Source of the DNA: Naegleria gruberi
Lineage: Eukaryota
Assembly: GCA_000004985.1 (NCBI GenBank)
Contig: GG739542.1
Length of the DNA stretch: 1,127 nucleotides
Strand: one strand, 5' to 3'
How positions within the stretch are numbered: the first letter of the stretch is position 1; the number at the start of each line of letters is the position of its first letter. The notes beneath the pieces are model-generated. The model searched no databases and was not told the DNA's origin. It worked only from the letters and a program-made list of their open reading frames with translations. Positions 1-1,127 of the stretch are shown here, piece after piece. The position numbers were made by a program, and so were the translations under genes.

Positions 1-73
1 TAATATATAGACCATTGATCAATATTAATAAAATTATTATCTAATTAACGCAAAGTAAAAAATCAAATCGAAA

Positions 74-83
74 TTTTTTTTTT
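74..83. repeat. Homopolymer T10 (a G7 run lies at 131-137)
   Basis: AAATTTTTTTTTTCAC and CGAGGGGGGGTG, read directly. Confidence 0.9.
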
Positions 84-147
84 CACTTTTGTCGTCTTTC
101 GCGCAAAACAAGGGTAACTTAAAGTCACGAGGGGGGGTGTTGTGTCA

Positions 148-156
148 TATAAAAAA
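148..156 (+). promoter_or_regulatory. TATA-like element ATATAAAAA (approx.)
   Basis: CATATAAAAAAATC sits just 3-prime of a G7 run. The first downstream ATG is at 231, but it opens only a 26-codon ORF. There is no other support. Confidence 0.12.
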
Positions 157-365
157 ATCATTATTTAAATAACTCGAAGGTGCACTGCAAATTGTCGGAC
201 AAAATAATCCACTATAATAAACATTGTTTGATGCCAAACGTTCGGGAGGTAGTCCAAACGGAGCAAGTAGGAAGTAAATGCATTTTTGGGAAATACGGGG
301 TTTCGGAGTAATTTAAAATACTGTTTACAGACCGATTATTTCATCCGACATTATTTGTGGGCTTT

Positions 366-385
366 CCCTTCGAATCCCTTCGAAT
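366..385. repeat. Direct 10-bp duplication CCCTTCGAAT x2 immediately left of the array
   Basis: CCCTTCGAAT at 366-375 and again at 376-385, read directly. Confidence 0.9.
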
Positions 386-396
386 CGGGATAAAAA

Positions 397-515
397 CCCC
401 TACAACTTGTCAATTAAAGTATATTAATAGGGTTTTATTATATTAAAAAAGAAAAATATCCCCCAAATTATGAAAAAATATCCAAGTCAGGATTGAAAAA
501 TTTTCGAAAAAAAAA
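397..515. repeat. Repeat copy 1, diverged (~85% similar to later copies by eye)
   Basis: CCCCTACAACTTGTCAATTAAAGTATATTAATAGGGTTTTATTATATTAAAAAAG...TATCCCCCAAATTATGAAAAAATATCCAAGTCAGG aligns to later units with several substitutions and a small indel (A6 instead of A8, ATCCCCCAAATTA vs CTTTCCCGAACTT). Confidence 0.85.
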
Positions 516-554
516 CCCTACCACTTGTCAATTAAGACGAGTTGATAGGGTTTT
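512..554. other. Unit-internal inverted repeat / potential stem-loop: 9-bp arms AAAACCCTA (512-520) and TAGGGTTTT (546-554), 25-nt spacer CCACTTGTCAATTAAGACGAGTTGA
   Basis: The arms are perfect reverse complements. The same pair recurs in copy 4 (751-759 / 785-793) and copy 5 (871-879 / 905-913). It is imperfect in copy 1 (AAAACCCCTA, extra C) and copy 3 (AAAACCTA, missing C). Confidence 0.7.
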
Positions 555-635
555 ATTATATTAAAAAAAAGAAAATACTTTCCCGAACTTGAAAAAATAT
601 CCAAGTCAGGATTGAAAAATTTTCGAAAAAAAAAA
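516..635. repeat. Repeat copy 2 (120 bp); junction is A9 then CCC
   Basis: Read directly. Identical to copies 3 and 4 except for the length of the junction homopolymers. Confidence 0.95.
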
Positions 636-754
636 CCTACCACTTGTCAATTAAGACGAGTTGATAGGGTTTTATTATATTAAAAAAAAGAAAATACTTT
701 CCCGAACTTGAAAAAATATCCAAGTCAGGATTGAAAAATTTTCGAAAAAAAAAA
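636..754. repeat. Repeat copy 3 (119 bp); begins CC instead of CCC after A10
   Basis: AAAAAAAAAACCTACCAC here versus AAAAAAAAAACCCTACCAC in copies 4 and 5. Otherwise base-for-base identical. Confidence 0.95.
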
Positions 755-874
755 CCCTACCACTTGTCAATTAAGACGAGTTGATAGGGTTTTATTATAT
801 TAAAAAAAAGAAAATACTTTCCCGAACTTGAAAAAATATCCAAGTCAGGATTGAAAAATTTTCGAAAAAAAAAA
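755..874. repeat. Repeat copy 4 (120 bp)
   Basis: Read directly. Identical to the copy 2 body. Confidence 0.95.
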
Positions 875-917
875 CCCTACCACTTGTCAATTAAGACGAG
901 TTGATAGGGTTTTATTA
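875..917. repeat. Repeat copy 5, truncated after 43 bp (…TTGATAGGGTTTTATTA)
   Basis: Matches the unit through TAGGGTTTTATTA, then diverges (AGCG versus TATT in full units). Confidence 0.9.
911..916 (-). promoter_or_regulatory. Candidate polyadenylation signal AATAAA (minus strand), about 41 nt downstream of the TAG stop
   Basis: Plus-strand TTTATT at 911-916 reads AATAAA on the minus strand. A U-rich CTTTATTTTTGT precedes it in the putative 3-prime UTR. Caveat: TTTATT is common in AT-rich DNA and recurs in every repeat copy. Confidence 0.25.
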
Positions 918-956: not shown

Positions 957-1127
957 CTATTGAATGTTTTTATTTACAGTATTTACAGACATCTTATTAC
1001 GGTACCAAGATAATGCCACTAATGGTCCTCCAGGGGATCGACGAGTAGGAGGTCTTTCACGTTGATTATTTACAGGTTCTTCCTCGGGTTCTTCGTAAGG
1101 TACTTCCTCTTGCTTCCTCTTCCGTTT
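957..1127 (-). CDS. 3-prime terminal coding fragment of an unknown protein; ORF open at the window edge, stop TAG at 959-957. Low-complexity C-terminus …KRKRKQEEVPYEEPEEEPVNNQRERPPTRRSPGGPLVALSWYRNKMSVNTVNKNIQ*
   Basis: Only one of the three minus-strand frames is open across 56 codons; the other two hit stops within about 20 codons. The minus strand is purine/GAR-rich (GGAAGAGGAAGCAAGAGGAAG), as is typical for the sense strand of K/E/R-rich coding, while the plus-strand readings give F/L-rich antisense-like peptides. Local GC is about 45% against about 30% in the spacer. I recognise no homology. At about 7% chance for a random 56-codon ORF, this is suggestive only. Confidence 0.4.
   Translation of the reverse strand, partial: KRKRKQEEVPYEEPEEEPVNNQRERPPTRRSPGGPLVALSWYRNKMSVNTVNKNIQ
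971..988. repeat. Tandem duplication of the 9-mer TATTTACAG (x2). The same 9-mer recurs at 1067-1075, and TGTTTACAG is at 322-330
   Basis: Read directly. The TTTACAG 7-mer occurs 4 times in 1.1 kb, against roughly 0.1 expected per strand. Confidence 0.85.

Follow-up and report, generated by a model that had tools for sequence, protein, structure and literature searches.

What are the evenly spaced inverted repeats at this Naegleria gruberi locus for, and do they have anything to do with telomere-type sequence? An earlier note on the stretch of DNA analyzed here (1,127 nt, 32% G+C; called the window below) had singled out a pair of inverted arms, 512 to 520 and 546 to 554, separated by a spacer of 25 nt, and had described the pair as perfect in copies 2, 4, and 5 of a tandem repeat and imperfect in copies 1 and 3. 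Motif positions confirm this description. The arm AAAACCCTA lies at 512, 751, and 871 and its partner TAGGGTTTT at 428, 546, 665, 785, and 905, with spacings between successive units of 119, 119, 120, and 120. The perfect AAAACCCTA-N25-TAGGGTTTT pair is found in just those three copies; copy 1 carries AAAAACCCCTA, with one additional C and a diverged interior, and the left arm of copy 3 is AAAACCTA, which has one C fewer. The five hairpin copies are tandem duplicates and do not represent independent events.

The 9-nt arms make up only the base of a longer, 43-nt hairpin. The palindrome extends inward of them (CCACTTGTC / GACGAGTTG) to give about 17 pairs closed by a 6-nt loop, AATTAA, and the capacity to form a hairpin or cruciform, which the note had raised as a possibility, turned out to be stronger than claimed. 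The predicted RNA fold has an energy of -20.3 kcal/mol on the plus strand and -20.5 kcal/mol on the minus strand (z = -6.1 to -6.7; 0 of 200 shuffles reach this stability), and the DNA folds reach -10.0 and -8.6 kcal/mol (z = -4.5 and -3.2). Chance alone would come close to producing an isolated 9-bp inverted repeat in AT-rich DNA, but it does not account for the full hairpin. Unit 1, at the edge, is degenerate; its fold (-7.2 kcal/mol, z = -0.5) resembles those of its shuffles, its outer arms are roughly kept, its inner palindrome is gone, and neither the run of 10 T residues (T10) nor the short box described below follows it. A scan with the bacterial intrinsic-terminator consensus gave 0 sites, and both this consensus and that of sigma-70 promoters are uninformative for a eukaryote; a bacterial-type intrinsic terminator was rejected on those 0 sites and the eukaryotic host, the likeness being one of overall shape. 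Rfam returned only subthreshold matches, to the SpF36 sRNA (32.5 bits against a gathering score of 48) and mir-454, and a miRNA or known RNA family was rejected as well.

The window comes from the circular extrachromosomal rDNA plasmid (CERE) of Naegleria gruberi and lies in its non-ribosomal spacer. It is 98.6% identical to locus L004 and 88 to 90% identical to L001 (VFQN01005947.1, a 14.4-kb metagenome contig that was the single match to the hairpin core in the metagenome scan) and L003. Eukaryotic SSU, 5.8S, and LSU rRNA genes are present in both L001 and L003, and the SSU twin-ribozyme intron of L001 contains a GIR1 branching ribozyme beside a His-Cys-box homing endonuclease gene; together, GIR1, the intron endonuclease, and the rRNA genes are the hallmark of Naegleria rDNA plasmids. 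L002 has a period of 13,799 bp, and L003 is the full circular unit, whose sense strand runs in the order SSU (1463 to 3482), 5.8S, LSU (3808 to 7263), endonuclease-like ORF (7861 to 8916), 119-bp array (8960 to 9243), a 293-bp dispersed repeat, and a 101-bp array. In L003, the 119-bp array is thus on the rDNA-sense strand and separated from the 28S gene upstream by about 1.7 kb; its location between the LSU 3' and SSU 5' ends of a circle of about 14 kb fits that of the repeats in the non-ribosomal sequence of Naegleria CEREs. In N. gruberi EGB, the spacer holds seven repeat families of 34 to 371 bp and an endonuclease-like ORF 3' of the 28S gene (PMC5805870). BLAST searches of the window against phage and plasmid collections, and of the exact hairpin core against viral and prokaryote genome collections, gave no match.

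Orthologous arrays comprise 5.4 copies in L001 and 2.4 copies each in L003 and L004, and the degenerate edge copy orthologous to unit 1 recurs in L001 and L003. The second copy of the dispersed repeat was located at 3405 to 3697 in L001, 11204 to 11496 in L003, and 3680 to 3971 in L004. The 56 C-terminal residues of the ORF encoded at the edge of the window are identical to those of P0002 (AUH25140.1, a hypothetical protein of Naegleria gruberi), and the array, with its first hairpin, starts 43 nt past the stop codon of this ORF. Homologue searches for the spacer ORF found it in three lineages only; in the most distant, L006 (58% identity in the ORF), the contig stops 43 nt past the stop codon, at the place where the unit begins. 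A GIR1 or group I remnant before the spacer ORF was not found. We treat the rDNA-sense strand as the functional strand of the array; in the window, this is the minus strand (Table 1).

Table 1. Coordinates, strand, and supporting evidence for the features of the window
Feature	Position	Strand	Evidence
Dispersed direct repeat of ~293 bp, one copy, on the array side away from the ORF	58..350	.	Second copy ~1.9 kb off in L001, L003, L004
Tandem array of 119/120-bp units, 4.4 copies	392..917	-	TRF period 120, 95% matches; direct-repeat family D1
Unit 1, degenerate edge copy	392..436	-	Fold no better than shuffles
Unit 2 hairpin (the inverted pair first noticed)	512..554	-	Direct reading, fold
Unit 3 hairpin, left arm AAAACCTA	632..673	-	Fold -14.3 kcal/mol, z = -4.5
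Unit 4 hairpin	751..793	-	Fold -20.5 kcal/mol, z = -6.6; covariance model R1 match 710-800, 119 bits
Unit 5 hairpin, first after the ORF on the sense strand, 9-nt outer arms perfect	871..913	-	Covariance model R1 match 830-920, 113 bits
GACTTGG box (plus strand CCAAGTC)	840..846; more at 720-726, 601-607, 482-488	-	Direct reading
3' end of His-Cys-box homing-endonuclease-like ORF, last 56 codons and stop (957-959)	957..1127, off right edge	-	Translation; PF05551 on full-length orthologue

Read on the sense strand, each unit has the order AATAAAACCCTATCAACTCGTCTTAATTGACAAGTGGTAGGG-T10-CGAAAATTTTTCAATCCTGACTTGGATATTTTTTC, that is, the hairpin, the T10 run, a further T-rich stretch, and a GACTTGG box located 24 nt past the hairpin. 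The first four T residues of T10 pair with the AAAA of the opposite arm, and in unit 4, the run that follows the hairpin corresponds to plus-strand positions 745 to 754. T10 is unchanged in three of the four window units that were aligned or scanned (unit 2 has T9) and in the units of L003 and L011, and is followed by CGAAAATTTTTC. Across the entire L003 plasmid, no other hairpin-plus-T-run on the sense strand is as strong as that of this unit.

Comparison among Naegleria plasmids shows which of these parts are kept. Between the window and the unit consensus of L001, none of the 43 hairpin positions differs, against 10 of 78 in the rest of the unit (Fisher p = 0.014), and within the N. gruberi group, the array has been homogenized separately in each lineage. 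Further Naegleria CEREs (L007, L009, L011, and L012) were recovered via the intron endonuclease. L003 and L011 are 99% identical in the LSU gene, whereas their spacers share just about four islands, namely, the 3' ETS, two promoter-proximal blocks, and the repeat unit (81 to 83% identity). L011 carries one copy of this unit, although its assembly may collapse repeats, at 446 to 532 nt after the LSU end and in the rDNA-sense orientation; the orientation of the unit to the rDNA is unchanged even though this plasmid has its endonuclease-like ORF inverted. This copy scores 106 bits against covariance model R1, a score that is not independent because R1 was built with the L011 unit.

The stem of the L011 unit (AAAACCCGAGTAGT...ACTACTCGGGTTTT) has three pairs altered on both sides (UA to GC, UG to GC, and CG to UA), which 4 of 500 shuffles reach; the covariation comes from a single diverged homologue, and the shuffle control is not a probability. 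In its arms, CCCGA/TCGGG replaces CCCTA/TAGGG with pairing intact (AAACCCGAG / CTCGGGTTT), and T10 with its flank, ...TTTTTCAATCTCGACTTGGAAATTTTT, is nearly identical between L003 and L011; both have kept the GACTTGG box. Because the hairpin was retained through this replacement, the telo-box letters are not what is conserved; what is conserved is the fold, together with the T-run, the box, and the way the unit is oriented to the rDNA. The source of the DNA, the position and orientation of the array, its fold, its conservation, and the compensatory changes are all direct observations.

In the more distant plasmids L007, L009, and L012, covariance model R1 found no convincing homologue (E of at least 0.03). 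Hairpin-plus-T-run modules on the sense strand within 0.2 to 1.9 kb of the LSU 3' end occur in all four complete or near-complete plasmids, with few on the antisense strand; those of L007 are at +364 and +809 and those of L009 at +317 and +1205. The box (GACTTGG or its variant CGACTTTG) followed by a T-run is found after the LSU on the sense strand only, at +33 and +48 in L012 and at +306 in L009. L007 has seven copies of the box (TCTCGACTTTGCCATTTTTT), mostly of the GACTTTG variant, with one exact GACTTGG. Closer to the LSU gene, a conserved CCAAGYTGATCARCTTGG hairpin with a T-run lies about 190 nt after the LSU in both L003 (+192, T8) and L011 (+187, T7).

Transcription termination by yeast RNA polymerase I (Pol I) offers a precedent for this arrangement. 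A roadblock protein halts the enzyme within a T-rich tract, 15 bp upstream of the site to which the protein binds, and the halted polymerase backtracks to the RNA hairpin immediately upstream; fail-safe terminators bear hairpins too, and the sequence of the hairpin is unimportant (Nielsen and Zenkin 2025, PMC12366685). In the Naegleria unit, a stable RNA hairpin directly precedes the T-rich element, the T-rich tract is on the non-template strand, the position downstream of the LSU in the rRNA-sense orientation is found in L003 and L011, and the conserved GACTTGG box 24 nt past the hairpin, a short one, provides a candidate roadblock site. Since all three parts of the yeast terminator recur here with order and orientation unchanged, we read the array as Pol I terminator modules. 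Our tentative proposal, to which we give a little less than an even chance, is that each unit is a Pol I terminator module of the hairpin/T-rich/roadblock type, tandemly amplified into a fail-safe array that possibly serves as a fork barrier as well.

Termination itself and the binding of any protein we infer from the anatomy of the unit and its conservation. Pol I that leaves the 28S gene and continues across the endonuclease-like ORF would meet the array, and at each unit, the hairpin, then T10 and the T-rich tract, and then a roadblock protein bound to the box would stop it. The tandem units would act as fail-safe terminators, and the primary site is probably nearer the LSU gene; the CCAAGYTGATCARCTTGG hairpin is the likelier primary terminator, and polymerase may rarely reach the array. 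Pol I terminators double as polar replication fork barriers in yeasts and mammals. If a protein binds the box, the array is probably also such a barrier, which, if present, would benefit a plasmid that replicates from one origin.

Among the alternatives, the one that fares best takes the palindrome as a DNA-level protein site for plasmid replication or maintenance, be it part of an origin, a fork barrier or replication terminus, or a partition or tethering array, comparable to the palindromic EBNA1 sites of Epstein-Barr virus (EBV) oriP or the STB repeats of the yeast 2-micron plasmid. Near-perfect palindromes in tandem on a nuclear plasmid of about 4000 copies would suit such a role, and the invariance of the hairpin within the N. 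gruberi group suits a sequence-specific site; the inner palindrome, CTTGTCAATTAAGACGAG, is 18 bp long, as a site for a dimeric His-Cys-box endonuclease would be, and an ORF of that kind is 43 nt away. The origin of CERE replication lies somewhere in the spacer (PMC13315211). The exact yeast ARS consensus is absent from the window and the array, however, and the two exact matches in L004 lie elsewhere, at 1168 and 2878. A single plasmid origin was reportedly mapped by Mullican and colleagues in 2019 to a 2.1-kb fragment of the spacer. A symmetric dimeric DNA-binding site could give equal two-sided changes in the stem, but the stem letters of L011 differ at many positions with pairing kept, which fits a structure better than a fixed site; moreover, a symmetric site does not need T10 on one strand or a kept orientation to the rDNA, and L011 seemingly has a single copy and no array, with the reservation that assembly can collapse repeats. 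On this balance, we regard a replication or maintenance site as unlikely.

A second alternative assigns the modules to the 3' end or terminator region of the transcript of the endonuclease-like gene itself, made by any polymerase, instead of to termination of pre-rRNA read-through. It accords with the start of the array so close behind the ORF, with an AATAAA that overlaps the 5' arm of every unit on the sense strand, and with an ORF that is intact in three lineages (dN/dS of about 0.5); the L011 unit is also 3' of its ORF, which is inverted there. T-tracts are able to terminate Pol II directly, according to two papers (PMC7615648, PMC11610936). Inversion in L011 nevertheless weighs against this explanation, because the unit there is antisense to the ORF; the ORF-sense strand has just TTTTGTTAT after the hairpin, and T10 is on the rDNA-sense strand. 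In addition, rRNA is the only documented CERE transcript according to one paper (PMC11075319). We therefore consider termination of the ORF transcript quite improbable as the sole role of the modules, while noting that it is compatible with termination of Pol I.

The array could, third, be a functionless satellite or, as the note had also suggested, the amplified TIR of a small, miniature inverted-repeat transposable element (MITE)-like element, with an incidental palindrome. Naegleria spacers are rich in fast-evolving repeats, which make up 31% of the spacer in N. gruberi EGB (PMC5805870); copy number varies from 2.4 to 5.4 across assemblies, and the edge copy is decaying. These properties of an idle repeat are set against the facts that the unit is among the very few spacer islands conserved between L003 and L011, that compensatory changes keep its hairpin, and that its position and orientation to the rDNA are conserved. 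The element was found at one position in 120 kb of Naegleria rDNA-plasmid loci, with no further copy there, and on one contig in the metagenome scan; target-site duplication is not evident. An origin as the TIR of an amplified small element is thus unsupported in the sequences searched, and an inert repeat in general appears very improbable to us.

Two further possibilities involve telomere-type proteins. The array could be a dual control element, a Pol I stop and a polar fork barrier in one, whose roadblock would be either a telomere-type Myb protein on the AAACCC/GGGTTT cores or the neighboring, domesticated His-Cys-box endonuclease on the inner 18-bp palindrome; this elaborated version of the terminator proposal is a long shot. 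Reb1 and TTF-I are Pol I roadblock proteins of the Myb family, a circumstance that also speaks for the idea with which the locus was first approached, namely, that a Myb-type telomere-repeat-binding protein recognizes the arms as telomere-repeat-like (telo-box) sites. The motif AAACCCTA/TAGGGTTT matches 8 of the 9 nt of the plant telo-box, but the full 9-mer, AAACCCTAA, is absent from the window, the ninth base being C in AAACCCTAC and T in the other arm, AAACCCTAT. TAGGGTT/AACCCTA occurs 14 times in the L001 spacer against 0.8 expected, with 13 of the 14 in two tandem arrays and hence not independent. Of the arms, L011 conserves AAACCC/GGGTTT, which corresponds to one unit of TTTGGG, the only published candidate for the N. 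gruberi telomere repeat (PMC3622300), although one 6-mer on its own argues only weakly for a binding site.

The interpretation as a plant promoter element fails on the host, since Naegleria is a heterolobosean amoeba and the organism, when checked, was not a plant, and derivation of the arms from telomeres fails on the repeat, whose only published candidate in N. gruberi is TTTGGG and not TTTAGGG; CCCTAAA and TTTAGGG are both missing from the window. Location gives the same answer, as the element lies 3' of the LSU gene and of the endonuclease-like ORF and not 5' of a Pol II gene; it is downstream of a gene and not in a promoter. The claimed motif is also not maintained, for the TA is replaced in L011 and the other arm compensates to give CCCGA/TCGGG. 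We reject the telo-box explanation as the least credible of all and regard the resemblance to telomeric sequence as coincidental, with a small residual possibility attached to the TTTGGG unit.

A Pol I terminator-type function for these repeats would matter beyond this locus. The sequence that contains the feature has been published, and spacer repeats of this class are known; the terminator-type reading in a heterolobosean is new, as a prediction. All rRNA genes of Naegleria, including those of the pathogen N. fowleri, are on a circular plasmid. The control of CERE transcription and replication and the conflict between the two are essentially uncharacterized, and how transcription ends and how collision with replication is avoided are described as unsolved (PMC13398248). 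The hairpin/T-run/box module is a concrete candidate for a terminator and possibly a fork barrier in this setting; if the proposal is true, hairpin-dependent Pol I termination would extend to Discoba, a deep eukaryotic branch, and the modules would aid the design of CERE-based vectors.

Compared with known systems, the repeat is one of the spacer repeat families of Naegleria CEREs (Maruyama and Nozaki 2007; Mullican et al. 2018, 2020; Nguyen et al. 2023-24), whose published lists, in the accessible literature, give neither the nested palindrome nor its conservation or function. It shares 8 of 9 nt with the plant telo-box and differs from it in the amoeba host, the wrong ninth base, the loss of the motif in a homologue, and a location outside promoters. 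T10 adjoins the hairpin directly, a trait shared with bacterial intrinsic terminators. Direct repeats that contain palindromes also occur on extrachromosomal protist rDNA in the spacers of Didymium and Physarum, but those arrays are upstream of the promoter and have been proposed to control initiation (PMC13182076), whereas the Naegleria array is just downstream of the genes. A comparison of the unit with the promoter-proximal region, as a test of a spacer-promoter or enhancer role, gave no similarity.

The Pol I terminators that act with Reb1/Nsi1, TTF-I, or Rib2 roadblocks offer the fullest set of parallels: the Naegleria array, too, is 3' of the large-subunit rRNA gene in the sense orientation, and its module is also present in tandem repeats. 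Repetition is seen in the mouse terminators, which comprise ten Sal-box sites, T1 to T10. The Naegleria array differs in its distance from the 28S gene (about 1.7 kb, with a protein-coding ORF in between) and in its location on a circular plasmid instead of in a chromosomal rDNA array. Its GACTTGG box is neither a Reb1 nor a Sal-box sequence and is a candidate site only; it presumably resembles the Xenopus T3 box, GACTTGC. In the order of its parts, hairpin, T-rich tract, and short box, the module is like the Pol I terminators already described (PMC12366685).

Nearer to the LSU (28S) 3′ end than the tandem array, the sister plasmid L003 and the more divergent Naegleria rDNA plasmid L011 share a conserved hairpin, CCAAGYTGATCARCTTGG, which is followed by a T-run (T8 in L003, T7 after AAA in L011); compared with the array, this candidate is the likelier primary Pol I termination site. 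Another conserved hairpin is found 40 to 100 nt past the LSU gene in L003, L011, and L007, a further plasmid of the genus, and its core is GTGATTTGATCAC in L011 and GTGAATTGATCAC in L007. Two of the seven TCTCGACTTTGCCATTTTTT copies of L007 form the 3′ arms of 16-bp hairpins, and an A-run precedes the 5′ arm of both, resulting in a bidirectional terminator-like shape.

Locations of spacer and flanking features in the window and related Naegleria rDNA plasmids
Feature	Coordinates	Remarks
Conserved hairpin CCAAGYTGATCARCTTGG, then T-run	L003 7437-7462; L011 ~12985-13012	~190 nt past LSU 3′ end
TCTCGACTTTGCCATTTTTT, 7 sense-strand copies	L007 +353 to +1039 past LSU end (locus ~795-1481)	
Spacer ORF, His-Cys-box (PF05551) domain	window 957-1127 (-); L003 7861-8916; L004 361-1395; L006 986-2029	
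Shorter His-Cys-box ORF, 188 aa	L011 13419-13985 (-)	31% identity to P0002 over 113 aa
~293-bp segment adjoining array	window 58-350; L001 3405-3697; L003 11204-11496	
TCCCTTCGAA, 2.2 tandem repeats	window 365-386	At decayed array edge
Second spacer array, 101-102-bp units	L001 4331-4588; L003 10313-10570; L004 2788-3054	
G+C-rich block, CAGC/TGGT-type microsatellites	L003 736-1272; L001 181-862; L007 6602-7016	
126/180-bp repeats with 37-nt AT-rich palindrome CTAATTAAAATTAGTTTCATAAAAACTAATTTTAATTAT	L009 13317-13586 and 1-253	

The N. gruberi EGB announcement labeled the His-Cys-box spacer ORF “likely a pseudogene.” Because it is uninterrupted in three lineages (amino acid identity, 58 to 81%), its Cys/His columns are retained across them, and its dN/dS values are ~0.46 to 0.52, sequence comparison suggests weak purifying selection on the ORF, not decay. 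No element resembling the branching ribozyme GIR1 was found upstream of it. The shorter L011 ORF occupies a spacer position equivalent to that of the ORF for P0002 (AUH25140.1, the N. gruberi spacer-ORF protein); its strand is the reverse one, so that it and the rRNA genes point toward each other, with the lone hairpin unit of L011 between this ORF and those genes.

The ~293-bp segment has a second direct-repeat copy ~1.9 kb off (89 to 95% identity between copies) and holds its own 17-nt inverted repeat (window 193-209/334-350). The tandem repeat TCCCTTCGAA is represented in the sister lineage (L001, L003) by one diverged copy only. The second spacer array and the hairpin right arm have the heptamer TAGGGTT in common, without exception in the same orientation; it is present in each unit of L001 and L003 and partly diverged in L004, where the array also contains one exact yeast ARS consensus (position 2878).

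The spacer proteins of L001 and L003 are 99% identical. In the SSU regions compared (L001 13282-14434, L003 1463-3482), the L001 gene carries a twin-ribozyme intron with GIR1 and an endonuclease, whereas the L003 gene has none, which is a presence/absence difference between near-identical plasmids. The G+C-rich block (57 to 59% G+C in L001) is located a few hundred nucleotides upstream of the SSU gene, and the long ORFs on both its strands look spurious.

In L009, another Naegleria rDNA plasmid, the LSU gene has a group I intron (11247-11534). The 126/180-bp repeats follow directly past its own post-LSU ORF (12384-13118), and their palindrome is unrelated in sequence to the window hairpin; L009 and the window plasmid share the same layout, an ORF and then palindrome-bearing repeats, but differ in sequence.
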